DNA from: Candidatus Cloacimonadales bacterium
GTDB taxonomy: Bacteria > Cloacimonadota > Cloacimonadia > Cloacimonadales > JAIOQZ01
NCBI GenBank assembly: GCA_963665815.1
Contig: OY762463.1
Span: forward strand, 480,001 to 544,000
Direction: 5' to 3'
DNA length: 64,000 bases
The translations under genes and the position numbers were made by a program. Positions 33,789 through 51,967 of the stretch are shown one piece after another. The notes beneath the pieces were generated by a model. It was not told the origin of the DNA. It made no database searches and was given only the letters and a program-made list of their open reading frames with translations. Each line of letters starts with the position of its first letter. The stretch's first letter is position 1.

Positions 33789-34043
33789 CTATTTGAGTAG
33801 CAGCATTTTACTTGTCTCAGAATGTTTCTCAGTCTTTAACTTATAGAAGTATACTCCACTGGAAACATCGTTGTTATTTGAGTCTTTACCATTCCAAACT
33901 ATTGAGTGTTCTCCTTGATTAATATAATCATTAACAAGTGTTCTCACTTTTTGTCCCTTCAAATTGTATATAGACAATTCTGCACGACCTTCTTCAGCGA
34001 TTGAGAATTTTATCTCAGTCTGAGGATTGAATGGATTAGGGTA
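33789..34043. repeat. CTD-encoding 255-bp repeat, copy 1
   Basis: About 8 mismatches to 35677..35931 by manual alignment. Confidence 0.9.
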
Positions 34044-35507
34044 ATTACTCAAAGATATGATGTCATAAGCATAGCTTTCATTATTACTTACATTTACCTG
34101 ATTTTCAATTGCTCCCATGTCGATTTCCGTTCCGAAAATTCTTGGATTACCAAGAAAGTCAAATTCAGTAAGAGTTACAATAGTTGTATCACTGATTCCT
34201 GTATCAATACAGGGTGAACTTGATTGAAGAGAGAAATCAAAGTTAGCTTCATCTGTGAACATAGGGTTTACTTCAATATTATTTTGTCCATAGTTGTAGG
34301 TTGGATCTCCCATACTTGATTCACTTATAGATGAAACACCGTATTCTACGTTACAGTAATCAATATCAACATTACCGTCAATCATGAAGAATTGGTTCTG
34401 TCTGTTTCCATAGAAAATACAGTTATAGAACTTGTCAGATCCACTGTAGCGCCCCAGCATAACTCTTCCATTTGTTGCAGAATTCTCATACATCACGCAG
34501 TTTATAAATGAACTATATGCATATCCTGATCCAAAATAAACTCCTCCGTAACGAGCTCCGTTGTTATAGAAGACGCAGTTGTTAAAACAAGGTGAAGAAC
34601 TGTATACTGTAACTGCTCCTCCCGAATCATTGCCTCTGTTTTGAGTGAACACGCAATTCTCAATCAGTCCATTAGAATTATACCATATTAATAATCCACC
34701 ACCATCATCACCAGCTTCATTATCATGAAATAAGACATTCTTAAGATGATATGTTATGTCTCTGGAAAATCCAAGTCCTCCACCTCTAACTTCCGCCTCA
34801 TTACCGCTGATTTCGCAATCATACATTTCAAGATGACAGTATCTTGCATGGATTCCACCAGAGAAACTGCTTCGATTGTTCTTTATCTCTGAGTTAGTTA
34901 TAGTGATTGAGGAAGAATGCATCAAGATTCCACCTCCGGTTCTTATTGTATGATTCGGAGTTCCATAAAGCCTGTTATGCTTTACAACACAATGATCCAG
35001 GTTACTTGTTGAGTTCTTAAAGAATATTCCTCCACCTTTACCAAATGATGTGTCTACACCAGCGTAGTTATACTCAATACTGCAGTATGAAATCGTTGGT
35101 GACGCATCAACGCAGAGAATTCCTCCTCCATAATTATACTCGAATCCAGGATTCTCAAAATCTCCCCAGGTTCCATTACCATTTGTTATTGTAAATCCAA
35201 TGATTTTTGTGCTGTCTGATTCCTGAGAATTGAAAGTAACAACAGATGTGCTGTCTCTACCATCAATAATTGTCTGACTAATGTATGAAGTATCACTTGC
35301 CGTAATAAACTCTGAGGTCAGAACAATATTTTTACCCATCAGGTTAATATTCTCATAATATGTACCCGGAGATACTATTATTGTGTCCGGCTCTACAGCC
35401 GCGTTAATTGCACTCTGAATAGACAGGAAATCTGCAGGAACATATATTACAGCTGAAGCCCCGCAAGCAATAATCAATATTAATAGAAAACTAATTTTTT
35501 TTAACAT
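33789..35507 (-). CDS. Secreted parallel beta-helix protein with FlgD-Ig/T9SS-like C-terminal domain
   Basis: IQSAINAA, PGTYYENI, repeated GGG/N motifs, SPCIDTG, DMGAIE, NYPNPFNP CTD. Confidence 0.85.
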   Translation of the reverse strand: MLKKISFLLILIIACGASAVIYVPADFLSIQSAINAAVEPDTIIVSPGTYYENINLMGKNIVLTSEFITASDTSYISQTIIDGRDSTSVVTFNSQESDSTKIIGFTITNGNGTWGDFENPGFEYNYGGGILCVDASPTISYCSIEYNYAGVDTSFGKGGGIFFKNSTSNLDHCVVKHNRLYGTPNHTIRTGGGILMHSSSITITNSEIKNNRSSFSGGIHARYCHLEMYDCEISGNEAEVRGGGLGFSRDITYHLKNVLFHDNEAGDDGGGLLIWYNSNGLIENCVFTQNRGNDSGGAVTVYSSSPCFNNCVFYNNGARYGGVYFGSGYAYSSFINCVMYENSATNGRVMLGRYSGSDKFYNCIFYGNRQNQFFMIDGNVDIDYCNVEYGVSSISESSMGDPTYNYGQNNIEVNPMFTDEANFDFSLQSSSPCIDTGISDTTIVTLTEFDFLGNPRIFGTEIDMGAIENQVNVSNNESYAYDIISLSNYPNPFNPQTEIKFSIAEEGRAELSIYNLKGQKVRTLVNDYINQGEHSIVWNGKDSNNNDVSSGVYFYKLKTEKHSETSKMLLLK

Positions 35508-35676
35508 ACTCTTTCTCCCTAATATACTAAATTGACCAGTACTCATTTAGTCAACTTTTTATTTTATTGTGATATAATTATCTATTTAAATGTTTTATTG
35601 TATGAATTAATTTTCATGTAAAACAAAACCCCGCTTTTTCGAAACGGGGTTAATGTATGATTGAGAGATGTGCTTT

Positions 35677-35931
35677 CTATTTAAGCAGCAGCATTTTACT
35701 TGTCTCAGAATGTTTATCAGTCTTTAGTTTATAGAAGTATACTCCACTGGAAACATCTTTGTTATTTAAGTCTTTACCATTCCAAACTATTGAGTGTTCT
35801 CCTTGATTAATATAATCATTAACAAGTGTTCTCACTTTTTGTCCCTTCAAATTGTATATCGACAATTCTGCACGACCTTCTTCAGCGATTGAGAATTTTA
35901 TCTCAGTCTGAGGATTGAATGGATTAGGGTA
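35677..35931. repeat. CTD-encoding 255-bp repeat, copy 2
   Basis: Near-identical to 33789..34043. Confidence 0.9.
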
Positions 35932-38130
35932 GTTTCCTATGATTTGAGTACAATAAGGTTCAATAAAGCCATCTGTGTTAGGAGTAATAATAGTATTGTT
36001 CAGTATTTCGAGGATTTCCCCGGATGAGGTTGCAAATACTATATCAATAGAATTATTGTTGTCAATATCACCTGCTGTTAATGCTGTTATTAAATTGTTT
36101 TGCGCAAGTACATTATTAGACCAGTTCGTCATTGAACCGTTATTCTCCAGAACTCCAATAACATTCATAGGTTGACTTGAGTTAAGATAAGCGAAATCAA
36201 GGTCTCCATCGTCATCAACATCAATTATTTCACCGTAATCATAGTAGTCAAGATATCCGATTACTTGTGGAGTAGATGAGAACTGTCCAAAATTTATCGT
36301 ACCTGTATATACTGAAATGGAATTATCCTGATAATGTGGAGGGACGATAATATCCAGGAAACCATCATTATTCATGTCGCAGCATTTGAAAATATTAACT
36401 CCATCTTCATTAAAAACCAGATCGGAAAGTCCAAAAGACATATTTCCGTTGTTATAACTAACTCTGATGTATCCATTGGGTACAGAATAAAGCATATCCG
36501 GTAGATTATCATTATTTACATCAACAAGCTCGAGATGATTGAAATCTTCCTGACTAACAATTATGCCGTTACTGAAAGTTCCCTGTGAGTTCTCGTATAT
36601 AGTTATGTGATCACCATCATTCCTGTTGCAAGCATATACAATGTCGAGATCTCCATCATTGTCCATATCTTTGAAACAGCAACTCGAGTTCCCATACAAA
36701 TAATCAGTTGAGTTTAACACAGTTTTCTGTCCATTCTGATAATAACATAACTGTTCTATTCGTGAATATCTTGAATAAAGGTCATCTATGACTACATAAT
36801 CTAAATCTCCGTTAAAATCGATATCTGCACAGTCATAGTTGTGAATATTATTCATGTCTGTTTCAGGAACTGTCGTTGGAAGAAATACATTGTTATCTAC
36901 TTCGATTTCACTGATAAAAGCCCAGCTAGAGTAAGTAATAAAGGGACTTCCTCCGGCTTCAGCAACTTTCATGTTTCTAATAGATTTATATGATTCCAGA
37001 CTTCTATTGTCAAGATTGAAAACACCTGCATTGTTCTGATAGACAAGATAGCAGCCTGCATCAAGTTCACAGTTGATTTCCGGATAGCCATCATAGTTAT
37101 AGTCAGCAATGAAAAAGTACATTCCGGATGTTTCAAGGGAATAAGCTTGAGAGTATCCACCAGTTCCTGCATAATAAACGTCAAGTTCATTGAAATCATG
37201 TTTTACACAGAAATCATCAATACTATCGTTGTTCAAATCTGCAACTGTAATGCATCTCGCATCAAGAACAGAGTCAGCAAGAACTACAGAATTGCTGAAG
37301 CTCTGGTTAACATCATTCTCGTAAATTACAAGCTGTTCCTGACTGGAATCATAATGAAGAATATCCTTCAAACCGTCATTGTTATTGTCTACTAATGCAT
37401 ACTGATCCTGATAATCAAACATGGCAATATCGTGATTAGTTATGAAAGTATTTGCCGAAGAATCAAACTCCAGCCATTTCAATGGTGAATTATATTGAGA
37501 AACACCAACAATATCCATATCACCATCGTTATCCATATCAGCAATAATATTATAATTATTATGCAATTGATCTTTACGTTGATTGTACACTGAATTGTTA
37601 AGATTTACTATAGCGAAAGTGTCTGTAAGTGTTGCTCTGGAAAGGTATTTTCCCATATTATAGTTACCCAGATAGATGTCTTTAAATCCGTCGTTGTTGA
37701 AATCATAGTAAAGAGTAGTTTCGCATTTATCAAAACCTATATACACCGGTGATTCCATTGTGAAGTTTCCTGCCCCGTCATTTGTGAATATGTATAGGTT
37801 TTCTTCTACAAGAACAGTTACAACGATGTCATTGTATCCATCATTATTCATATCGGTAAACTCAATTGATTCCAGCCAATATGAGAAACTTCCCAGATTG
37901 TGCATCTGATAGTAAGACCCATCTCCGTTTGTGTCCTCTTGCCACACAAGATCATTTTGATTATTCTCAATATAATCCATGTCTCCATCATAGTCAATGT
38001 CTGCAATAGTGCATTTTCCTATGTTCGTTAATCTGTTTTGTCTAAGCATTGATTGAGATGGTGAATAATCAACTGCCCCAACATGACTTGATAATAAAAA
38101 AAGAAATAGTGTAAAATGAAAATATCTCAT
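35677..38130 (-). CDS. Secreted FG-GAP/VCBS repeat protein with FlgD-Ig/T9SS-like C-terminal domain
   Basis: Many D(M/I/L)(D/N)xDGxxD repeats; NYPNPFNP CTD. Confidence 0.88.
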   Translation of the reverse strand: MRYFHFTLFLFLLSSHVGAVDYSPSQSMLRQNRLTNIGKCTIADIDYDGDMDYIENNQNDLVWQEDTNGDGSYYQMHNLGSFSYWLESIEFTDMNNDGYNDIVVTVLVEENLYIFTNDGAGNFTMESPVYIGFDKCETTLYYDFNNDGFKDIYLGNYNMGKYLSRATLTDTFAIVNLNNSVYNQRKDQLHNNYNIIADMDNDGDMDIVGVSQYNSPLKWLEFDSSANTFITNHDIAMFDYQDQYALVDNNNDGLKDILHYDSSQEQLVIYENDVNQSFSNSVVLADSVLDARCITVADLNNDSIDDFCVKHDFNELDVYYAGTGGYSQAYSLETSGMYFFIADYNYDGYPEINCELDAGCYLVYQNNAGVFNLDNRSLESYKSIRNMKVAEAGGSPFITYSSWAFISEIEVDNNVFLPTTVPETDMNNIHNYDCADIDFNGDLDYVVIDDLYSRYSRIEQLCYYQNGQKTVLNSTDYLYGNSSCCFKDMDNDGDLDIVYACNRNDGDHITIYENSQGTFSNGIIVSQEDFNHLELVDVNNDNLPDMLYSVPNGYIRVSYNNGNMSFGLSDLVFNEDGVNIFKCCDMNNDGFLDIIVPPHYQDNSISVYTGTINFGQFSSTPQVIGYLDYYDYGEIIDVDDDGDLDFAYLNSSQPMNVIGVLENNGSMTNWSNNVLAQNNLITALTAGDIDNNNSIDIVFATSSGEILEILNNTIITPNTDGFIEPYCTQIIGNYPNPFNPQTEIKFSIAEEGRAELSIYNLKGQKVRTLVNDYINQGEHSIVWNGKDLNNKDVSSGVYFYKLKTDKHSETSKMLLLK

Positions 38131-38553
38131 ATTTCCTCCTTAAATTAAAATAAATCCGTAAATAAAAAAAAAGTAAAGATAATTCTTCCGGAATTCAGTA
38201 AAAAAGTAGATACTGCAAAATGCATTTCTTGTAAAATCCCAAACTGCAAAATATCTTAATGTACACATTTGCTATCATAGCAAATTAAGTTCCAATGTGG
38301 AATATTATCCATATTACATTGAAGATTCAATATTGGAAATATTTGTAAAATCATAAAATCAATAAATTCAGGAGAATTAATATGGTAAAACTTTTTTCGA
38401 TGCAACATAAAACATCAGGAACATTTATAGTATTGATGATTACTATTGTATATGATATTGTCAATATACATAGACGTATGTGTTTGGTCAAGAAGATGAC
38501 TTATTAATTCAACAAAGAAACTATTTTGTTCTTCAAAAATTATTTTTTTGGGT

Positions 38554-39719
38554 GCGTTCAAATAACTGGGTCTGAAGGAGACCCTAATTAGTTTTGACAA
38601 AAAGAGTTACATTAGATTATTCGCATGTCATGCGGATAAAGAAAAAAAACGATGTCCTCTTTGTGAAAGTTTGAACACAAAAAAGAAAGGTTTTACAACT
38701 AGGATTATTAGTACAATGCGAGGTAAAACACATAGTAAACTGCAACGATACTATTGTAACGATTGTCAGCATAGTTTTACATCTCAAGGTTATAATAAAC
38801 GGAAATCATTTTCCAGCGATCTTAAAGAGAAAGTGATACTTGATTACGTATTAACAAAAAGTTCTCTTTCTGAGACAGGGCAAAGATACAACGTTAGTAA
38901 AAGTAGTATATGCAATTGGATCATAGAGAACAGTGCTAAATTTTCATCAATAAACAAGTTGCCTATGTATCAGAAAACAAGTGGATACATTCAGTTTGAC
39001 GGTAAATTTCCAACAATTGCGGGAACTGCCTATTGCTTGCTGCATGCATCTGATGCACACACAAATGAACCAATATGTTATGGACTCTATCGCCGGGAAG
39101 ATACTGAAGCAACTAATACTTTTCTCAAAATGTTAAAAAGAATCTATCCATCCGAAATTAAGGGAATTATCAGTGACTTTGGTAAAGGAAGGTGCTTCAT
39201 TAAGCCAATAGAACAGTTATTCCCTGAAGCCTTGCACCAGATATGCATTGTACACTATCTAAGGTATGTAAGTATGTTCTTACCCAGAACCAAACGCAGT
39301 CAATATTTCATAAGAAATCGATTTATGAAAGGACTTATACGCAATATGTTAAGAGCACCGGACAGAAGTGAATCGGAATTTTGGTATCTACTATTTAATC
39401 ACTTCATACCTTTCTTCAAAGCAGATTATCATAAGCGATTTATTCGTTCCATAACAAAACATTATAGTAAATTAACTGCATTCTATGAAGATGAAATGTT
39501 AATATCAAATACCAATATGATTGAAAATAGAAACAGACAACTTGAAAGAAAACTGAAAAACATAGATGGCTTTGGTGCAATTAACAATGCAAAAAAGTTC
39601 TTGCAAATATGGTTTCACTTTCAGAAAATGAAATACAAATAAAAATCAGAATAACTTCAACAATAATTTTGAAACTATTCTGATTTGAAAATAATTATTA
39701 GACCCAGTTATTTGGACGC
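38554..39719 (+). mobile_element. Insertion sequence, about 1.17 kb, with 20-bp terminal inverted repeats
   Basis: GCGTTCAAATAACTGGGTCT (38554-38573) vs reverse complement of 39700-39719, GCGTCCAAATAACTGGGTCT: 1 mismatch. Encloses a transposase; no target duplication seen; true ends may extend by a few bp. Confidence 0.88.
38630..39642 (+). CDS. DDE transposase (IS1-type zinc ribbon + HTH, IS256-like catalytic motifs); start out of frame by 1 nt at an A8 run
   Basis: CPLC...QRYYCNDC zinc ribbon (first CxxC lies upstream of the ORF-track TTG at 38671); QFDGK, ISDFG, HQICIVH, TNMIENRNRQL. Confidence 0.8.
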
Positions 39720-39978
39720 TGCTGATAAAACAGAAATTGATACGTTTGAATCATCTGCTACAGGTGTTCCAGATTTAGTCGTGGGTAGCTTAAGATATTC
39801 TACACATGAAAAATGGCACAGGGCTCAAAAATTGTTTGGAATTCCTGAAAGCTTTCAAAGTGAGTGGAGTTCACTTGAATTTAAGGAAAAATTAAGATAC
39901 AGTAATGATATCAATGAATATGATTGCATACAAAATATGAACAAATTCTTTGGTGGAACGGAAAGGGAATATCATTAA
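39720..39978 (+). pseudogene. C-terminal fragment of an HExxH protein truncated by the IS
   Basis: Open frame directly after the right IR with STHEKWH...NEYDCIQNMNKF..GTEREYH, parallel to the C-terminus of 41998..43011. Confidence 0.55.
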
Positions 39979-40024
39979 GATTTCCTCTTACCGACCAAGC
40001 ATTCTGAAGAACAGGAGTAACAAT

Positions 40025-41665
40025 ATGCATTTTAAAAAAATAGCGATACTGACATTAATTCTTTTTACTCAGTTTGTTATTATTAAAGCTGAAGTAATAG
40101 ACACAATTAATATACCTGAGAGAATAAAAAATCATTCAAACAATATTGGTAGGAATGATGACATCATAGCTTTATTTGTCGAAAAATCAAACTCAGATAT
40201 GGAACATTTCGATGAGTTCAATCTTCTACTTAAAAATACAGATAGTAGGGGCAATGTTGTATTAGAAAAACAATACTCCTATTATTGTACTAAAAGCAGG
40301 TATAGCAGCAATTACGGAATACATGAAGCAACTTGCGATATTCAAGGTAACATTTATGTTTTTGGATATTTCACTGGAATTATTGAAATTTTCGGAGACC
40401 TGCTAAAGTCCGAACCTTGCAGGGTATCTTTGCAGTTTGATATTTTTGAGCGTGATAAAGTTACCACAAATACATTGAAGATTTACAATGGTTTTGTTGC
40501 AAAACTTGATAGTCTGGGAAATCCCTTGTGGGTCGTAAAAACAACCGGTCCAAAGCGTGATTACTGCTGGGATGATGACGGTAATTTATGCCTCTTAAAT
40601 GGATATAGATCCAGATGGACATATATGTCTGGACAAAGAGATGATGAAAAATATATTTCATCTGCATTGAAAATTAATAGTGATGGGAAAATAATCAGTT
40701 CATATTTTCCTGGTGATGTATCTTTCTTCAAGGAGTACTTTTATACATGGAGTAAATCAGGTAAGCTCTATATTATTGGACTTCAGGGAGCACCATCGAA
40801 ATATAATGAATTACTTCTGGCAACAAGAGTAAACACGGAATTACACTTTCAGAAGCTCAATATCTCTGCGATCAGGGGAAGTAAAATAATCACCTGTGCG
40901 TTCCTGGATAGTTCTGAGAATCCGGTTTTTACTCTTTACAGTAGGGATTTTTTTAGGTTGGGAGAGTATAGCAAAAAAGACACACTTATAATAAATGGGG
41001 AGAAAATATTTCAGGATAGCCCAATAACGTTCAAGTACAATATAAGATCTGATAGCCTTGATTTTGATTTGAATAAGAGCAATGGACGTAGAACCAGTGT
41101 GATTGAGAGAACAGGTAACTTTGTAATCAAGGAATCTATCTCGGATACTGTTAGAATATCATATAAAAATTTATCCAGTCCAATGTTTAGAATTTTTCAT
41201 AACGACTTTTGGCGTAAGAGAGAAAAAGGAAATGAAAGAGAGTTTTTGATCGAGGATATAGATAATAACGAAGTTGCTCGATTTAGAACTAAAGGATATT
41301 TTGAGGTACAATTCGTAAGACCATTGGATGAAGGATACCTGATATTAGGCCAGATGGGGAACACTTTAAGGATAAACGGACATATGGTTATCAAGAATGA
41401 ACAACAAAAGTCAAACTGGATTGAAATACTGGTAGATCGGGATAATAATATTTATCATTTAGCATTTATGGATTTCCGTCCGTCAATATATCCGGGATAC
41501 TTTAACAAATATTTAGAAGATATTTTCTTAAACAACAGTGATCATATTATTTATTATATGATAGAAAATGATAAGTCAGATAATGAAACTGACTCTAAAA
41601 AGGAAGTTCTTAATATATATAAGTATGGAATTCCCTCAAATCCTGAAGGAAATTTTATCAAATAG
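40025..41665 (+). CDS. Secreted beta-propeller-like protein (cassette 1 partner)
   Basis: AGGAG RBS, signal peptide; blade motifs DSRGNVV, DIQGNIYVFG, KLDSLGNPLW, DDDGNL, KINSDGKI. Confidence 0.7.
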   Translation: MHFKKIAILTLILFTQFVIIKAEVIDTINIPERIKNHSNNIGRNDDIIALFVEKSNSDMEHFDEFNLLLKNTDSRGNVVLEKQYSYYCTKSRYSSNYGIHEATCDIQGNIYVFGYFTGIIEIFGDLLKSEPCRVSLQFDIFERDKVTTNTLKIYNGFVAKLDSLGNPLWVVKTTGPKRDYCWDDDGNLCLLNGYRSRWTYMSGQRDDEKYISSALKINSDGKIISSYFPGDVSFFKEYFYTWSKSGKLYIIGLQGAPSKYNELLLATRVNTELHFQKLNISAIRGSKIITCAFLDSSENPVFTLYSRDFFRLGEYSKKDTLIINGEKIFQDSPITFKYNIRSDSLDFDLNKSNGRRTSVIERTGNFVIKESISDTVRISYKNLSSPMFRIFHNDFWRKREKGNEREFLIEDIDNNEVARFRTKGYFEVQFVRPLDEGYLILGQMGNTLRINGHMVIKNEQQKSNWIEILVDRDNNIYHLAFMDFRPSIYPGYFNKYLEDIFLNNSDHIIYYMIENDKSDNETDSKKEVLNIYKYGIPSNPEGNFIK

Positions 41666-41669
41666 TTGA

Positions 41670-41697
41670 AAGCCTGCCTTGAGCAGGCTTTTCTTTT
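41670..41697 (+). terminator. Terminator at start of repeat copy 1
   Basis: AAGCCTGC-CTTGA-GCAGGCTT followed by TTCTTTT. Confidence 0.8.
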
Positions 41698-42025
41698 AAT
41701 CACATGTATTGCAAAGAAAGAATTGACTAAAAAAAGGCTATACTAAGGGTATTCATTGTAGTAGGTCATTGAAAAGAATAGGAAAGTTCGTTGTATAAGC
41801 AATATACAAAGTTCTTTAAATGTATCTCCTATGGTCTTCGAACTGACGTTCTACAAACCTGATGAAAGATTCTCGGGTATGCACCCTACGAACTTGTGGA
41901 GATGAGACTCTCGGACATATGTCCTACGAGCTCATAGCTTGACGGAGCTTTAGCAGCATCCGGATGGGATTTCGGGCAATTACTGAAGTATCACCAGATG
42001 AAAATTCAGGCAGAAGAAAGAATGA
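41670..42025 (+). repeat. 356-bp inter-cassette direct repeat, copy 1 (terminator + leader + start of coding frame)
   Basis: Ungapped match to 44413..44768 (offset 2743), about 22 mismatches by manual count. Confidence 0.92.
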
Positions 42026-43011
42026 GATATCTGAATTCTCTGGCAAAAGCAAAAGCAGAGTGTGAAGCAGCTAATAAATATTATTGGGATCGAGCTAAAG
42101 CTGAACATGATGCCTGGTCGGATGAAATTGCAGAACTGGGCTGGGAAATGATAGAGGAAGCACTTGCTATTAAGGAGTTGTTAGAGACACTTGATGCATT
42201 GAAGGTTATGGGATTTAATGATAAAGACAATATTCCTGAAAACTATCCTACAAATGAGCTTTCAAAAGATAAAGAAGAAAACAAAAATCCTTCTAGAGTG
42301 CTTCAGGAAAAACTTACAAAAGTTATCAATGATCATTTCAGCACAGATTTTGAAGCAAGTATTCTAAAAAATCTGACAATAGGATCATTAGTTGGCGAAG
42401 GTTTCATTGACAAATTTGTTCAAGGATTTAGTGATATGCTTGAGCATGGTGGAACTGAAGGTTATGATCTAGTCAACAGTTTACTTGATGGCTTTGAAAA
42501 TGGGAAAAAACTTACCTTATTTGATACTTCACTAATTCCAGATGATTCTTCAACTGGATTTAATGGTATTCTACCTTTTACTAATGAAAAGAAACTAACA
42601 AACAATGTTCATTTGTATCTTGACTTACATACTTCCGTTGATGATAAAATGACTTCAACATTGCATACACAGTATATTACTTTAACACCTTTAAGAAAAA
42701 TGGTTCATGAGTTAACTCATGTGGCAGATTATTTTGGGTTTGAAAATTATGAAGAGTATACTGAATATAGAAAAGATTACAAAAAGTTTGGTAAAACGAG
42801 CATTATGAATGTTGGAGGAAGGAACTATAAACTTGATGTTCCAAATCCTGGAGAACTGAGTGCTCTAATGACAACCAATATAATTTTGAATAATATTCAG
42901 AATTCAAAAGGTATTCGGGACCAAGATGTGAGAACAGTATATGGAAGATTTAAGAATGAAGACTATAGCCCCATTCATTTTGAAACAGATTTGTATGGAA
43001 ATAAACTTTAA
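41998..43011 (+). CDS. Helical N-terminus + HExxH zincin-like C-terminal domain (polymorphic toxin-like; true start uncertain)
   Basis: MVHELTHVAD...GELSALMTTN...RTVY; no signal peptide; frame open upstream to 41938. Confidence 0.65.
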   Translation: MKIQAEERMRYLNSLAKAKAECEAANKYYWDRAKAEHDAWSDEIAELGWEMIEEALAIKELLETLDALKVMGFNDKDNIPENYPTNELSKDKEENKNPSRVLQEKLTKVINDHFSTDFEASILKNLTIGSLVGEGFIDKFVQGFSDMLEHGGTEGYDLVNSLLDGFENGKKLTLFDTSLIPDDSSTGFNGILPFTNEKKLTNNVHLYLDLHTSVDDKMTSTLHTQYITLTPLRKMVHELTHVADYFGFENYEEYTEYRKDYKKFGKTSIMNVGGRNYKLDVPNPGELSALMTTNIILNNIQNSKGIRDQDVRTVYGRFKNEDYSPIHFETDLYGNKL

Positions 43012-43026
43012 CAAGGAGCAAATCAG

Positions 43027-44406
43027 ATGGTTAGATATATATACTTAGTAACATATTTTCTTTGTTTTACTTTCATCCTTAGCACAAATTGTTTTGCCAA
43101 GGATTTATGGGAATCTATTAAATTTGTTAAGCCTGAAAATGAAAATGAGGATTATTTTGTAGAGGATATTCAAAAGGACAAATTATTGATACAGAAGAGA
43201 ACTATATCATATCCTAATAAAGGAGTAAACCGACCATTTCAAGAGTCTTCTATTCTATTTGTTATGGATACATCAAATTCTCGAATTGATAGTATTATGT
43301 ATGCAGGATCAAATGATTTTTCTATAAGTAGTCCAAAGTTTAGTAAAGATGCTCAAGAATTATTTATGTATATATCATATAGAGATTCCTTATATGTTAA
43401 TGACTCACTCACTGCTGTTTATGATTATCCACAAAAAAATAACGGTCTTTTTGCAAAATTTAACAACAAGAAAGAGATTCAATGGATATTTTTTCCAGAA
43501 GTTAAATACTTACGATCAGCAAGATCTGGAAGAATAATTGGACAAAATAATAAATCTGATGTGTTTACTTCATTCAATTATCAAAGAATTGATAGCTTGA
43601 GTGAAAACTACGTTAAAAATGTAGTATACACAAAATTTTCTAGTTCTGGGCAGATACAATGGCAGCGAGAAATCGAGTACAATCTCGTTGAGATATCAAA
43701 CCCAATTACTTTTTTGTCAGATAATAATCTTTATTGTGCTACTGCTTTTAAAGATAGTATAAAACTTGAATCAAAGACAATCAAATCGAAATTCAATGAA
43801 TCGATAATAGTCTTAAAATTTGATACAGATGGTAACATCTTATGGCACAAACAAATTAATAAAGATTCGATAATTGAGGAAAAGAGAATCTGTAAAGGAG
43901 AAGATGGAAATTTATACTTAGCATTAATGTGTATAAATGATGTTGCTTTTGATGATAAAGTTATTAAATGTGCTCCCCTGAGTCTCGATGATGTTAATTC
44001 ATTAAGGAATTACGGTAGATGGTTAATTATTAAGTTTGATGATAATGGTGAAATTTTAAATGCAGGTTCAACAGGAATTTATGGATCAAATAGAGTAGAC
44101 TTCATGCGCATTGATAGTAATGGTAATGTTTTCTTTCAAGGAATCTTCTCGACATTATATAATGAAATGGCAAGTAAGAAACTTACTAATGACACCTATG
44201 ATCGATATTTCGAAGCGGTATTTGATTCTGACTTAAATCTAATCGAATACAAAATCTGTGAGGAAACATTTCCAGCAAGAATTCAATGGATGGACAATTT
44301 CATTATTAGAGAAGAGTTTGAGCAAAAAAAAGATTGTGACGATGTTAAATACAAAATACTGAAAGCAGATCTCCCTTTGCTGTTAAAAACAAAACCTGTG
44401 GAGTAA
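43027..44406 (+). CDS. Secreted beta-propeller-like protein (cassette 2 partner)
   Basis: AAGGAG RBS, signal peptide; KFSSSGQIQW, KFDTDGNILW, EDGNLYL, KFDDNGEI, IDSNGNVF. Confidence 0.72.
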   Translation: MVRYIYLVTYFLCFTFILSTNCFAKDLWESIKFVKPENENEDYFVEDIQKDKLLIQKRTISYPNKGVNRPFQESSILFVMDTSNSRIDSIMYAGSNDFSISSPKFSKDAQELFMYISYRDSLYVNDSLTAVYDYPQKNNGLFAKFNNKKEIQWIFFPEVKYLRSARSGRIIGQNNKSDVFTSFNYQRIDSLSENYVKNVVYTKFSSSGQIQWQREIEYNLVEISNPITFLSDNNLYCATAFKDSIKLESKTIKSKFNESIIVLKFDTDGNILWHKQINKDSIIEEKRICKGEDGNLYLALMCINDVAFDDKVIKCAPLSLDDVNSLRNYGRWLIIKFDDNGEILNAGSTGIYGSNRVDFMRIDSNGNVFFQGIFSTLYNEMASKKLTNDTYDRYFEAVFDSDLNLIEYKICEETFPARIQWMDNFIIREEFEQKKDCDDVKYKILKADLPLLLKTKPVE

Positions 44407-44412
44407 ATATAT

Positions 44413-44768
44413 AAGCCTGCCTCGAGCAGGCTTTTCTTTTAATCACATGTATTGCAAAGAAAGAATTGACTAAAAAAACGCTGTACTAAGAGTATTCATT
44501 TTAGTAGGTCATTGAAAAGGATAAGAAACTTCGCTGTATAAGCAATATACAAAGTTCTTTAAATGTATCTTCTATGGTCTTCGAACTGACGTTCTACAGA
44601 CCTGATGAAAGATTCTCGGGTATGCACCCTACGAACTTGTGGAGATGAGACTCTCGGACATATGTCCTACCAGCTCATAGCTTGACGGAGCTTTAGCAGC
44701 ATCCGGATGGGATTTCGGGCAACTTTTGAAGTACCACCAGACAAAAGTTCAGTATGAAGAAAGAATGA
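44413..44768 (+). repeat. 356-bp inter-cassette direct repeat, copy 2
   Basis: Matches 41670..42025; starts with the same terminator hairpin. Confidence 0.92.
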
Positions 44769-44863
44769 AGTTTCTGGAAGCTCTTGCTATTAAGGAGTTG
44801 CTATCTAAGCTTCATGAAATGCGGATTCCAAAATTTTTTGTTTATGGTAAGATTTGTTTCTGA
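44681..44863 (+). pseudogene. N-terminal stub of a third cassette ORF
   Basis: LDGALAASGWDFGQLLKYHQTKVQYEERMKFLEALAIKELLSKLHEM...* shares EERM and EALAIKELL with the 41998 ORF frame. Confidence 0.65.
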
Positions 44864-44999
44864 TACTCACAAATAAAAGGAACATGTAAGTTTGTAGATT
44901 TCCTGAACATTTTACACCTGATCAATGTTTTTAAGTATCAACAAAATAATGAATATACTTCATAACGGATTAAACACAAAATATTTACAGGCTTTAAAA

Positions 45000-45099
45000 T
45001 GGTCGGGATGACAGGATTTGAACCTGCGGCCTCGCGGTCCTGAACCGGAAAGCTGAGTTTACTCAGTCTTCGAACGCTACCGAACTGCGCTACATCCCG
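45000..45099 (-). tRNA. Non-canonical tRNA: Pro-type body, anticodon CAG, 23-nt insertion in anticodon stem, encoded CCA
   Basis: CGGGATG TA GCGC AGTTCGGTA GCGT T CG[AAGACTGAGTAAACTCAGCTTTC]CGG TTCAGGA CCGCG AGGCC GCAGG TTCAAAT CCTGT CATCCCG ACCA. Confidence 0.8.
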
Positions 45100-45202
45100 A
45101 CTATGAAGTATAAAAAAACATGCTGACATTTGCTGTAAAGTAATTTTTCAAGTTAATCTGTGATTTGTTGATTTATATCAGGAGCTAATGGCTATCAGGT
45201 TT

Positions 45203-45299
45203 CGGGATGATCCCGATTTATCGGGACGGCCTCACGGTCCTGAACCGGAAAGCTGAGTTTACTCAGTCTTCGAACGCTACCGAACTGAGCTACATCCCG
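45203..45299 (-). ncRNA. tRNA-like copy with T-arm replaced by TCCCGA-TAAA-TCGGGA hairpin, no CCA
   Basis: Acceptor stem CGGGATG/CATCCCG intact; D and anticodon arms each carry one substitution. Confidence 0.45.
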
Positions 45300-45403
45300 A
45301 CTATGAAGTATAAAAAAAACATGCTGACATTTGCTGTAAAGTAATTTTTCAAGTTAATCTGTGATTTGTTGATTTATATCAGGAACTAATGGCTATCAGG
45401 TTT

Positions 45404-45500
45404 CGGGATGATCCCGATTTATCGGGACGGCCTCGCGGTCCTGAACCGGAAAGCTGAGTTTACTCAGTCTTCGAACGCTACCGAACTGCGCTACATCCCG
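45404..45500 (-). ncRNA. tRNA-like copy with T-arm replaced by palindrome, no CCA
   Basis: Identical to the tRNA from acceptor 5' strand through variable loop; acceptor 3' strand retained. Confidence 0.45.
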
Positions 45501-45726
45501 ACTATGAAGTATAAAAAAACATGCTGACATTTGCTGTAAAGTAATTTTTCAAGTTAATCTGTGATTTGTTGATTTATATCAGGAGCTAATGGCTATCAGG
45601 TTTCGGGATGATCCCGATTTATCGGGACGGCCTCGCGGTCCTGAACCGGAAAGCTGAGTTTACTCAGTCTTCGATTTATTCTGAGAGAAGTAATTTTTTC
45701 ATTTCCAAATAATCTCAAATTTATAC

Positions 45727-45755
45727 TTGACTTACAAACTATATGTACTATAATT
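45727..45755 (+). promoter_or_regulatory. Sigma70-type promoter for the HD gene
   Basis: TTGACT-16 nt-TATAAT upstream of AAGGAGG RBS. Confidence 0.6.
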
Positions 45756-45786
45756 TCTTGTTAAACTAAAAAACAAGGAGGATAAT

Positions 45787-46593
45787 ATGGAACGATCACC
45801 CAAGCAACTTAGTATGGAACGAAAAATCCTCAGGATTGCCAGTGGTAAAGCTGTAACCCTACTGGAAAGAATATTTGCAGATGATGAACTGCAGGCCATG
45901 CAGGATTATGCAAATTATGTGTCAATTAAACGTCTTGGATTCAACGATCATGGTCCTGTCCACATGAGAACAGCGACATATAACGCTCTGAAGATGTTCA
46001 ACCTGCTTAGAGAAGCAAATGTGAAGTTCACTTTGGAAGAAGAAGGAATTGGTGCTTCTGACGACAGTTTATGTGCTGTTGTAATGGGATCACTTTTTCA
46101 CGATCTCGGTATGACAATCACTCGCAGTAATCATGAATTCTACAGTTTTCAACTGGCTTTACCGTATATCCAGAGATTTCTGGATGAGATATATTCACCA
46201 GACCAGTTACTATTAAAAAAAGCAGTGCAGTCTGTTACTCTGGAAAGTATTATAGGACATATGGCAACAACTAAAATAAACTCTCTTGAAGCCGGTTTGG
46301 TTTTGATTGCCGATGGTTCTGACATGGAAAAGGGGAGAGCGAGAATACCGACTTTATTGTCCGGGGACCCAAAGCCCGGAGATATTCACAGAACATCAGC
46401 AGGAGAAATTGAGAATGTGATAATCTGTAAGGGTGAAGAAAAACCTATTAAGATTATTGTTAAGATGAATGCTTCGGTTGGACTATTCCAGATTGAGGAA
46501 GTGTTCTATCCAAAAATCAATTTTTCCCCAGTTAAAAAGTATATAGAACTTTATGCCGGTGTGAAAGAAAGAGAGCTGCTGAAATATCTTTAG
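45787..46593 (+). CDS. HD-superfamily phosphohydrolase
   Basis: NDHGPVH, FHDLG, IIGH, ADGSDMEKGRARI. Confidence 0.88.
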   Translation: MERSPKQLSMERKILRIASGKAVTLLERIFADDELQAMQDYANYVSIKRLGFNDHGPVHMRTATYNALKMFNLLREANVKFTLEEEGIGASDDSLCAVVMGSLFHDLGMTITRSNHEFYSFQLALPYIQRFLDEIYSPDQLLLKKAVQSVTLESIIGHMATTKINSLEAGLVLIADGSDMEKGRARIPTLLSGDPKPGDIHRTSAGEIENVIICKGEEKPIKIIVKMNASVGLFQIEEVFYPKINFSPVKKYIELYAGVKERELLKYL

Positions 46594-47093
46594 CAATGAT
46601 TGTGTGGGGTGAATACGGAGGATAGTTGTATTGTCAAATTAAAGGAAATTATCGGGATACCCTCTGAATGCTGAATCAGTATTATACACCGTGTATCCTG
46701 ACTTCTTATGATATTTTCAGAAGTTAAATAGTAATCCTTTAAATAACCTCTTAATTTATACAACCAACAGGAAAGATTTTTCTGAAAACAGTTCTGATGA
46801 CAGGAACGGCAAAAAGTAACTGCAACAGAATAGCTGATGTAAATCTGTGGGGAATATTCATAATTCAGACCGGGATAGTACTTGCTGATAAACCAATATG
46901 ATGATTAGCACCAGAGAGTTACCTGTAAGTGAGTTAATTAGTTCATGATATTTAAATTATACGTTTTAAAAATGGGGCAATAAATAATATGGCGATTGCT
47001 GTAATTTTCAAAATGTAGGAATTTTGTGTAAAAAATATATTGACAAACAGAAAATATGCTCAATTAGTTTGACAGTAAACTAAGGAGGTGCTT

Positions 47094-49936: not shown

Positions 49937-51967
49937 TTATTTCAGTAATACCATTTTTTTGATTAGTTGCTTACCTCTATTGGTTTCTGCCTTAATAAGA
50001 TAAATTCCATTGGAAACAGACTTATTATGTTCATCCTTACCATTCCATTGAACAGATTTCACAACTGAATTTTCTGAATGAGTAATAGTTTTAATAAGCT
50101 GGCCCTTAATATTATAAATTTTAATATCACCCCTGAGTGATTCGTTTCTACCCGTTGAAGAAAATGATATATTGAGTAGATTAGATTTTCCGGTACAGAA
50201 AGGATTAGGATAAAGACTAAGCTTGGATATTGAATTCTCAATGTCATTATTAACAGTACTTGTTCCGTTCACATATACTTTTTGAAAACCGTTTTCCGGG
50301 TATGAAGTGAAATTAGGTGGAGTACCGTTATCCGCAGTATGAATTCTATAGAAAAGGGAATCTGCTTCGTTCGGAGGGGAATCAAAAGTATATGTCCAGG
50401 TGTTTGCATCCTGTTGTATAAACTGTGCATATTGTGCAATACCGACTGTCTTGTATTCTATAAGCACGGTTGAAACAAATCCGTCATCTTTAACATCTGC
50501 AGTTAATGTATAGGGGAAATCTGTGGCGGAAATTACTGTATCCGGTGTATGGTTGATTACGGGTCGCATAATATCATTAGTAATTGTGAAAGCAAACGGA
50601 TCGATACTGCCCATAACAGGAAGATTTACACTTCGTCCGGACATATCTGCAGCATGAATATAGTAATATACAGTTGTTCCAAGAGGTTGAGCAGGGATTT
50701 GACCTCTATATGTATCTTCGTTATGATAACTCATTTGTACAGGCTGATAAGTATCATTATAAGCTGTCTTATAATATACAAGAAGAGAATCCGTATAAAG
50801 ACTATAACCACTGTAAGCAATAATCTCAGCATCAATAATTATGTCGGAACGTGTAACATCAACAGTTGTCTGAGGCATATGTCCAATATGAAGCATGTAT
50901 TTATCTGGAACTTCATGAGTTCTACAGTGAAGAGCATCAGTGCTTCTCCAGGCAATAGTTCCGCTGCTGTAGTATCCCCGCACGTGATAACCGGGCATTG
51001 CCATTCTGTAGACGTTAAGAGCAATTGAATCCTCAGCTGTATCTGTAAGAGGAACATAAACATTATTGTTAAGTATCAGCGAGTTTGTATATGGTTCATC
51101 ATTATTTGTATTTACACGAAATATCCTATAAGGTGTCCCATAACAGGAGAGAGTATTCAGGAAATAGTTATATGTGTTTTCAAGCTCTTGAAACTGGGAG
51201 TGTGTGGGACTGACTGACCTGAGTAGAATTTTATCAGGTGCCAGGAATTTTCCCCAGCAGTCGATGTGATCAATATATGTGTTATTCGGATCGCTTATAG
51301 TAAAATATCTTGTAGTACCAAGATATTGGGCAAGACGATTTTTAATCTCCAATTCATTCATATGAGGATTTTCATTAATTACCAGATCGGAAGATGCACC
51401 GGTTGATACACCATCATTCATATAGTTTCCACCTGTGTGAATGATATCCATTCCGTACATATCAAGTGTGTCCGCAGTGGCAAAAAAGGGAGGAAAATCA
51501 TTATCAAGTGGACGGTATGTTCTGTTATAGGGGAAATCCACAACAGCAACTTCATTGTTGCCGTCAACAACGAAGAAAGGACCGAAATCCCTTGTCCAGT
51601 ATGAATTAGTATTATAAATAAGGAATTCGCAATTACTCATATTGATTCCATTATCTGTTAATTGAGTATCTGCGATCTGCCTTGTACTCTCATCTTCAAC
51701 AGCAATAATCAGTTTTGTATCATTTGCCAGGTCGTTAATCAGCTCCATGGGTATTCCAAAGGGATATGCTATTATAACAGCTGACATCTGCTCGAACTCT
51801 GCAACAGGTCGTACAGGTGATGCTGGAGGTTGAGTTTCATTAAAATCTCTTCCTATAAGGTAACGGTCTCTTTCCTCAGCTTCTGTCATGCGATGAGGAA
51901 AAGCAAATTGAGCGAAAACTGTGCTGCAAAACACAAAAAACATAAATATAGATATAATTCTCTTCAT
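49937..51967 (-). CDS. Secreted agmatine/peptidyl-arginine deiminase family protein with FlgD-Ig/T9SS-like CTD
   Basis: AEFE, WTRDFGP, GGNYM.DG, HIDCW, YTNSL, DALHCRT; YPNPF...GIYLIK CTD. Confidence 0.9.
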   Translation of the reverse strand: MKRIISIFMFFVFCSTVFAQFAFPHRMTEAEERDRYLIGRDFNETQPPASPVRPVAEFEQMSAVIIAYPFGIPMELINDLANDTKLIIAVEDESTRQIADTQLTDNGINMSNCEFLIYNTNSYWTRDFGPFFVVDGNNEVAVVDFPYNRTYRPLDNDFPPFFATADTLDMYGMDIIHTGGNYMNDGVSTGASSDLVINENPHMNELEIKNRLAQYLGTTRYFTISDPNNTYIDHIDCWGKFLAPDKILLRSVSPTHSQFQELENTYNYFLNTLSCYGTPYRIFRVNTNNDEPYTNSLILNNNVYVPLTDTAEDSIALNVYRMAMPGYHVRGYYSSGTIAWRSTDALHCRTHEVPDKYMLHIGHMPQTTVDVTRSDIIIDAEIIAYSGYSLYTDSLLVYYKTAYNDTYQPVQMSYHNEDTYRGQIPAQPLGTTVYYYIHAADMSGRSVNLPVMGSIDPFAFTITNDIMRPVINHTPDTVISATDFPYTLTADVKDDGFVSTVLIEYKTVGIAQYAQFIQQDANTWTYTFDSPPNEADSLFYRIHTADNGTPPNFTSYPENGFQKVYVNGTSTVNNDIENSISKLSLYPNPFCTGKSNLLNISFSSTGRNESLRGDIKIYNIKGQLIKTITHSENSVVKSVQWNGKDEHNKSVSNGIYLIKAETNRGKQLIKKMVLLK

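Follow-up and report, generated by a model that had tools for sequence, protein, structure and literature searches.

The tRNA-like sequence at positions 45000-45099 of a 64,000-nucleotide stretch of a Candidatus Cloacimonadales genome (hereafter the window) is the last unit of a tandem array of tRNA-Pro-derived copies, a context that the initial annotation of this DNA had missed. We read this unit as a presumably functionless, non-decoding pseudo-tRNA. Our preferred account, which we consider probable, is that the ancestor of the genus could dispense with its tRNA-Pro(CGG) gene, which became disabled, and that the descendants of this gene were then duplicated, remodelled, eroded and, in the genome studied here, amplified.

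Results

Anatomy of the terminal unit

The sequence under study, designated u3, has a body of the tRNA-Pro type, the anticodon CAG and a canonical T arm, and its CCA is encoded. Its position and parts are as follows.

45000..45099, minus strand: unit u3, the reported feature, recognized from its sequence, by the Rfam tRNA model (43.7 bits) and by ARAGORN after in silico removal of the insert
45048..45070 (about), minus strand: 23-nt insert made up of short flanks and a hairpin of 5 bp with the loop UAAA, lying between pairs 2 and 3 of the anticodon stem (from sequence)
45040..45042, minus strand: anticodon CAG, which is CGG in related genera (from sequence, locus comparison and unitigs)

Read on the minus strand, the acceptor stem has 7 bp with C1-G72 and A73, the D arm carries G18G19, U8 and A14 are present, the variable loop is 5 nt long, and a T stem of 5 bp closes the T loop TTCAAAT. 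The anticodon stem likewise has 5 bp; its pairing is perfect only with the 23-nt insert, which follows the second pair, excluded as a loop. The anticodon loop reads TTCAGGA. All of the landmarks described in the initial annotation, from the cloverleaf, CCA, C1-G72/A73 and 5-nt variable loop to TTCAAAT, the 23-nt insert and CAG, are present exactly where it had placed them. In its acceptor stem, D arm, T stem and T loop u3 is thus like an elongator tRNA, and its anticodon stem is interrupted. As a tRNA-Pro it shows the expected homology, C1-G72 and A73, and lacks the G35+G36 pair: position 35 is A, G36 is kept, and the ProRS identity element G35 is absent.

With the Rfam tRNA model (RF00005), whose cut-off is 29, u3 scores 43.7 bits at an E value of 5.6e-06 for the window, and this is the window's only Rfam match; in the alignment, 38 nt of u3 stand against 15 in the model. 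The 3' 48 nt of u3 are 83-92% identical to the tRNA-Pro(CGG) of related genera, and from this identity together with the Rfam score it follows that the match is not due to chance. The T arm is identical to that of the genome's own tRNA-Pro(GGG). ARAGORN calls no tRNA in the native window and, once the 23 nt are removed by script, a 77-nt tRNA with anticodon cag.

Minimum free energy folding of u3 keeps the acceptor stem, the T arm and the insert hairpin and does not return the five-arm cloverleaf; its z-score is -2.0, with 8 of 200 shuffled sequences equally stable. The insert hairpin is present in every computed fold of the units. The 28-42 pair is G-C here and U-A in the ancestral tRNA, and this change makes the stem perfect across the insert. 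To judge from sequence, the G-C pair looks like an adaptation to the insert, and we count it against the units being relics.

Unitigs built from short reads (three runs of one sample, possibly the assembly's own source sample) cover 45002-45056 with 0 differences from the assembly. Neither A35 nor the junction with the canonical T arm is therefore an assembly slip, and the base at 45041, on which the anticodon assignment hangs, is confirmed as part of CAG.

The tandem array and its units

In what follows, G000 denotes the source genome (Candidatus Cloacimonadales bacterium) and G001 its one same-genus relative. The array and the other copy found at this locus in G000 are listed below.

45027..45674, minus strand: tandem array of 200-bp units in 3.2 copies (TRF: period 200, 98% matches, score 1266)
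45202..45299, minus strand: unit u2, 5' end at 45299, with the T arm replaced and without CCA (sequence, alignment)
45403..45500, minus strand: unit u1, 5' end at 45500, with the alternative T arm and without CCA (sequence, alignment)
45603..45674, minus strand: unit u0, partial, beginning at the 5' strand of the anticodon stem and lacking the acceptor 5' strand and the D arm (sequence, alignment)
46644..46712 (about), minus strand: eroded relic of copy A, which has a full-length counterpart in G001 (global alignment with the G001 copy A region)

Units u1 and u2 have the same 5' half, insert and CAG loop as u3. Their alternative T arm is an 18-nt hairpin of 7 pairs with a UAAA loop, composed of acceptor-strand sequence and its complement. 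Unit u2 carries two private substitutions, one of which breaks a D-stem pair while the other turns a pair into G-U. The Rfam tRNA model finds no match in u1 or u2 even at E values up to 10, and both of these alternative units fold better than shuffled sequences (z-scores of -3.5 and -4.4). In the unitigs, the common part of the array is 2.4-4.2 times as deep as the unique flank, and one of them forms a closed loop that runs through the alternative T arm; the two observations agree on about three array copies. That G000 has amplified intact units instead of losing them counts against a history of simple decay.

The insert occurs four times in the 3.96-Mb G000 genome. All four occurrences lie inside the array, so the insert is not a dispersed repeat. 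Of the proposal that a tRNA-Pro(CGG) had been inactivated by a REP-like insertion, the inactivated tRNA-Pro(CGG) survives and fits the data best, and the REP-like nature of the insertion does not.

Several further candidates were set aside. On the native array, the intron and low-threshold modes of ARAGORN return three implausible calls: Asp(gtc) containing an intron of 7 nt, Gly(tcc), and one whose 2-base anticodon is undetermined. On the alternative units stripped of the insert the program forces an 86-nt call with a weak acceptor stem. We give no weight to any of these calls. A consensus scan of the minus strand from 44300 to 46000 finds no sigma-70-type promoter. A separate promoter for each unit was dropped as a candidate; it consisted of two hexamers paired by eye across a 21-nt spacer. 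The cTTGACA box that lies about 45 nt upstream of many working G000 tRNA genes was not found at the units. A type III toxin-antitoxin repeat array is rejected, the period being 200 nt and no toxin gene lying downstream on the minus strand.

An ordinary tRNA-Pro(CGG) gene in related genera

A 301-nt query from the locus has matches in 40 of 41 related genomes, and outside the genus it matches as two pieces from which the insert is omitted. At all eight loci fetched from other genera of the order the sequence is an ordinary tRNA-Pro(CGG) of 77-78 nt, and the same is true of the three loci from the same family (3/3). These ordinary genes share their acceptor and D arms with the array units, and their T arm is identical or nearly identical to the canonical one. 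In one such genome (G006) a cupin gene lies about 7 kb from tRNA-Pro(CGG), and its orthologue in G000 lies 4.4 kb from the array; the locus is therefore roughly ancestral. An ordinary gene in other genera, the insert form in a single genus and the true T arm in G000 only fit an inactivated tRNA-Pro(CGG) best among the options of the initial annotation.

ARAGORN lists 41 tRNAs in G000, including tRNA-Pro(TGG), tRNA-Pro(GGG) and a normal tRNA-Leu(CAG) of 88 nt, and finds no ordinary tRNA-Pro(CGG) anywhere in the genome. Of the separate genes for tRNA-Leu(CAG) and tRNA-Pro(CGG) that the initial annotation had asked about, the first exists and the second does not. With tRNA-Pro(UGG) and tRNA-Pro(GGG) remaining, tRNA-Pro(CGG) is dispensable. 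In the syntenic 19 kb of G001 ARAGORN finds no tRNA.

A second unusual tRNA lies outside the window, at G000:C1:3767207-3767301 on the minus strand. It is 95 nt long, with anticodon GCA, discriminator G, a long acceptor stem and a long variable arm; ARAGORN types it as tRNA-Cys, and the Rfam tRNA-Sec model scores it at 52.8 bits (cut-off 47). The G000 tRNA listing holds no tRNA-Sec with a UCA anticodon. The sequence resembles the Sec-like tRNAs described in the part of PMC5389517 drawn on here, where the selC* tRNA-Cys has U73; here the base is G73.

Distribution of the insert form

The insert form is found in G000 (4 copies) and G001 (2 copies). Searching 203 genomes of the order with a 21-mer at up to 2 mismatches recovers the same two genomes, besides two 2-mismatch hits. 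The combination of insert and CAG, which the initial annotation had proposed to look for in related genomes, is present in copy B of G001 and was not seen in the other genera of the order. An exact 19-mer scan returns 5 loci in genome contigs, 11 in metagenomes and 0 in viral sequences, with one true homologue, a G001-like record. Among phage records, blastn retrieves only generic 3' halves of tRNA-Pro, in 10 records, and no insert form. Literature searches found nothing on tRNA-like elements in Cloacimonadota and, among the matches listed, nothing relevant on tRNA pseudogenes, tandem tRNA copies or anticodon-stem insertions.

In G001 two copies, A and B, stand on either side of a gene of 268 aa. 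Both end in CCA and have the insert as well as the alternative T arm; the version with the canonical T arm is seen in G000 only and is absent from G001. Copy B has the CAG loop, with a CAAA tetraloop. The loop of copy A is of the CUG type, and this copy is mismatched within the hairpin as well as at 28-42 and 1-72. A 1.1-kb segment of G001 is bracketed by direct repeats that consist of a full copy and u0.

Conservation of the copies

Between G000 and G001 the units differ at 3 of 98 positions from copy B and at 5 of 98 from copy A. Eleven working tRNAs compared between the same genomes differ at 2 of 855 positions, and the copies hence evolve more than ten times faster than working tRNAs. We tallied the stem substitutions among the copies by hand from the alignment, with those private to u2 included: there are seven, of which five abolish pairing and two yield G-U, without a compensating change for any of them. 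At position 35 the outgroups have G; one lineage has A, and the other U, which is the base of G001 copy A.

Other features of the copies point the opposite way, and we count them against decay alone. The insert, a CAG-type loop and the alternative T arm are retained in both species. About 45 nt of upstream sequence are common to the units of G000 and to copy A of G001. The units are 95-97% identical between the two genomes, against 79.5-93.1% in local alignments of the surrounding DNA and 71.7% at the third codon positions of the neighbouring gene. On the side of decay stand the eroded copy A of G000, the mismatches in copy A of G001, and copy B of G001, from which 32 nt of an upstream block present in all other copies are missing. 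It is possible, on these comparisons, that the unit stretch is under some constraint or that the divergence time is short, which we also set against the units being relics. Conservation is below that of a working tRNA yet above the local background and is therefore intermediate: as far as sequence comparison goes, it is clearly unlike that of a working tRNA and not clearly neutral.

A rearrangement breakpoint in the T arm

The array abuts DNA that has no counterpart at the matching site in G001; the gene on the other side of the array is listed with it.

38500..44999, no strand assigned: DNA adjoining the 3' end of u3, absent at the matching site in G001 (Pfam, comparison with G001)
38550-39724, no strand assigned: insertion sequence with a Mutator-family transposase of 323 aa, PF00872 (Pfam)
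45787..46593, plus strand: gene of 268 aa between the array and the copy A relic, with matches in 137 of 151 genomes of the order

The 6.5-kb stretch is made up of the insertion sequence, a segment found elsewhere in G001 and about 3 kb seen in G000 only. In G001 the insertion sequence has copies of 97-99% identity at no fewer than four sites. Downstream of copy B lies, in G001, the orthologue of an 817-aa gene that G000 encodes at 35677-38130, and in G000 the 6.5-kb stretch separates that gene from the array. The breakpoint is the T arm of u3: the canonical T arm joins the 6.5-kb stretch directly, and is either ancestral or arrived with the adjoining DNA. No tRNA fragment was found at the far end of the 6.5-kb segment. 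No integrase was found among seven neighbouring proteins scanned with Pfam or, by eye, among the open reading frames of at least 120 aa between 36 and 54 kb; the Mutator-family transposase is the only recombinase seen among those neighbours.

Across the order the 268-aa gene belongs to the single-copy core, and in genomes of other genera (G003, G006, G018 and G036) it is distant from tRNA-Pro(CGG). A functional link between it and the units is rejected on these grounds (matches in 137/151 genomes; far from tRNA-Pro elsewhere). Its product has no sequence match in Pfam, NCBIfam or PDB, and an H..HD-like motif is visible by eye.

Other observations concern the surrounding DNA. The roughly 3 kb absent from G001 and directly downstream of u3 (41855-45000) encode two proteins without a Pfam family, one of 337 aa with an HExxH-like motif (by eye) and one of 459 aa with an N-terminal hydrophobic segment. 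After the gene of the latter, at 44413-44433, lies a bidirectional terminator-like hairpin of 8-9 pairs with T runs on both sides, whose weak, sub-threshold Rfam matches (Trp leader, OrzO-P) look like chance. Further out, on the minus strand, 33789-38130 and 49937-51967 encode large secreted repeat proteins that have a conserved C-terminal segment of about 90 aa in common. This segment also occurs in related genomes; it resembles a type IX secretion sorting domain and may be one.

Decoding of CUG

The tRNA splicing endonuclease of the EndA family (PF01974) has 0 matches in G000, and archaeal controls do match. A group I intron measures a few hundred nucleotides, so the 23-nt insert is too short to be one, and no bacterial route is known for excising a 23-nt insert from a stem. 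Measured as an intron-containing tRNA, u3 thus has an insert of 23 nt, situated in a stem, and no endonuclease to go with it. Measured as a tRNA-Leu, it has a variable loop of 5 nt in place of the long variable arm of a type II body.

Codon usage was compared in 41 alignments of G000 open reading frames with loci of other genera, many of them the same genes, so that the counts that follow are not independent. Leu stands opposite CTG codons at 234 of 342 positions and Pro at about 1%, as is the case for the other Leu codons; opposite CCG codons, Pro is found at 95 of 103 positions. The alignments indicate that CUG is read as leucine in G000. About one in four of the aligned Leu codons is CTG, and a CUG reader that inserted proline would therefore be costly.

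The initial annotation had asked about a second ProRS, and none was found. G000 encodes a single ProRS (TIGR00408, 520 bits), with nothing above the TIGR00409 cut-off, and consequently has no ProRSx partner for such a tRNA. The E. coli ProRS relies on G35, G36, A73 and G72, according to the part of PMC10404621 drawn on here.

Discussion

A probable disabled and amplified tRNA-Pro(CGG) gene

We infer both the order of events and the recombination mechanism at this locus. In the ancestor of the genus, the tRNA-Pro(CGG) gene would have gained the 23-nt hairpin in its anticodon stem and lost G35. The disabled gene would then have been duplicated, with the T arm of most copies converted into a palindrome of the acceptor stem, and copies would later have been lost or eroded. 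In G000, unequal recombination between a partial and a full copy may have produced the 200-bp tandem array. Unit u3 is the terminal copy of that array, situated at a rearrangement breakpoint, and the sole copy with a canonical T arm.

Alternative accounts

A tentative and somewhat unlikely alternative is that the units, as their sequence might suggest, encode a genus-specific, tRNA-derived non-coding RNA, the non-translational tRNA mimic that the initial annotation had listed among its options. Such an RNA would keep the acceptor stem and the D arm and offer two UAAA hairpins, one from the insert and one from the T-arm replacement, to a partner, with the array raising the dose. In its favour, both species keep the insert together with the alternative T arm, and their identity of 95-97% exceeds a local background of 79.5-93.1%; against it, five of the seven stem substitutions break pairs and none is compensated. 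The upstream block common to the G000 units and G001 copy A speaks for such an RNA. Against it, the block has been lost from G001 copy B, the consensus scan of the minus strand shows no sigma-70-type promoter, and the units are without the cTTGACA box of many working tRNA genes in G000. The folding scores of the alternative units (z of -3.5 and -4.4), the perfect anticodon stem across the insert and the 3.2 near-identical copies also favour such an RNA; against them stand the erosion of copy A in G000, the failure to find any relative of the RNA beyond one genus (in genome, metagenome and viral contigs, the 203 genomes and phages) and the want of an evident partner gene, the 268-aa gene being a core gene far from tRNA-Pro elsewhere. 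More specifically, the units could be a young, genus-specific family of expressed tRNA-derived RNAs with a fifth arm and a second UAAA hairpin that have left translation for a role as mimic or decoy. We consider this unlikely; were it so, u3, with its true T arm and CCA, might still be chargeable.

The copies could also be mainly att scars, left as elements that target the stretch from the anticodon arm to the 3' end of the tRNA-Pro gene came and went repeatedly. Each event would have left behind an incomplete or hybrid 3' portion, such as u0, the alternative T arm or, in u3, the true T arm beside foreign DNA. Repeats at tRNA att sites usually span the anticodon stem to the 3' end, and u0, a partial copy of the 3' side, has this extent. 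Also in favour are the direct repeats formed in G001 by a full copy and u0 and the DNA specific to G000 that begins directly after u3. Against it, the 1.1-kb segment between those repeats contains only a core gene, the far end of the 6.5-kb segment carries no tRNA 3' fragment, no integrase was seen in the seven Pfam-scanned neighbours or in the reading frames of at least 120 aa inspected by eye from 36 to 54 kb, and unequal crossing-over is a simpler account of the 200-bp periodicity. As the principal explanation we hold it quite unlikely. It concerns origin and not function, overlaps with a disabled and amplified tRNA-Pro(CGG) gene, and may explain part of how the copies arose.

It is highly improbable that u3 is a working tRNA, five-armed or processed, that decodes CUG and inserts either Leu or, by deliberate mistranslation as with tRNA-ProX, Pro. 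In favour of such a tRNA, u3 shows all the landmarks of a canonical tRNA, among them CCA and C1-G72/A73, its anticodon stem is perfect around the insert, it is called as a 77-nt tRNA(cag) without that insert, and it has a precedent in the Pro-type tRNAs with non-Pro anticodons of Streptomyces (PMC10404621, in the part drawn on here). Against it, there is a single ProRS, G35 is replaced by A, the long variable arm of the genome's own tRNA-Leu(CAG) is lacking, no member of the EndA family was found and 23 nt are too few for a group I intron, G001 does not have the version with the true T arm, CTG is common and aligned with Leu, and the copies evolve more than ten times faster than working tRNAs. 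The Pro-inserting version put forward in the initial annotation is not supported by these results.

Significance

If a disabled and amplified tRNA-Pro(CGG) gene is the right explanation, the locus is an example of how a dispensable C34 isoacceptor gene dies, here disabled by a stem insert and an anticodon change and then shuffled and amplified locally, which is useful and not surprising. It would also be a warning that a covariance-model hit can pass off a relic of this kind as a tRNA and assign it a misleading anticodon. Should the units prove to be expressed and stable, they would constitute a rare natural tRNA scaffold with an extra arm on the anticodon stem and a replaced T arm, of interest to tRNA biologists and tRNA engineers alike.

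Comparison with known systems

Like REP and MITE-like elements, the insert is a short perfect hairpin that interrupts a gene. Unlike them, it is not repeated elsewhere in G000, and across 203 genomes it occurs in G000 and G001 only, besides the two 2-mismatch hits.

Allo-tRNAs, selC*-type tRNA-Cys, tRNA-Pyl and the armless mitochondrial tRNAs resemble the units in departing from the 7/5 cloverleaf, and tRNAs without a T arm are functional in nematode mitochondria (PMC5389517, PMC7609411, both in the parts drawn on here). The departures described in those parts of the two papers are in stem lengths, a bulged base and missing arms, whereas a side hairpin on the anticodon stem, as in the units, is not among them.

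The tRNA-ProX of Streptomyces and Kitasatospora (tRNA-ProA, -ProT and -ProN) share with u3 a C1-G72/A73 Pro body and a non-Pro anticodon; in the portion of PMC10404621 used here, they are canonical cloverleaves that occur beside a dedicated ProRSx and have A33 and A34. In contrast, u3 has U33 and C34 and the 23-nt insert, stands in a genome with a single ProRS and lacks the conservation of a working tRNA.

There is also a likeness to tRNA pseudogenes and att-scar copies, with which the array shares tandem and partial copies, relaxed conservation, rearranged DNA at the 3' end and an insertion sequence nearby. It differs from them in having no intact isoacceptor copy beside the broken ones and no integrase in view, in the acceptor-stem palindrome that replaces the T arm in most of its copies, and in the unique 23-nt stem insert and changed anticodon that every copy carries.
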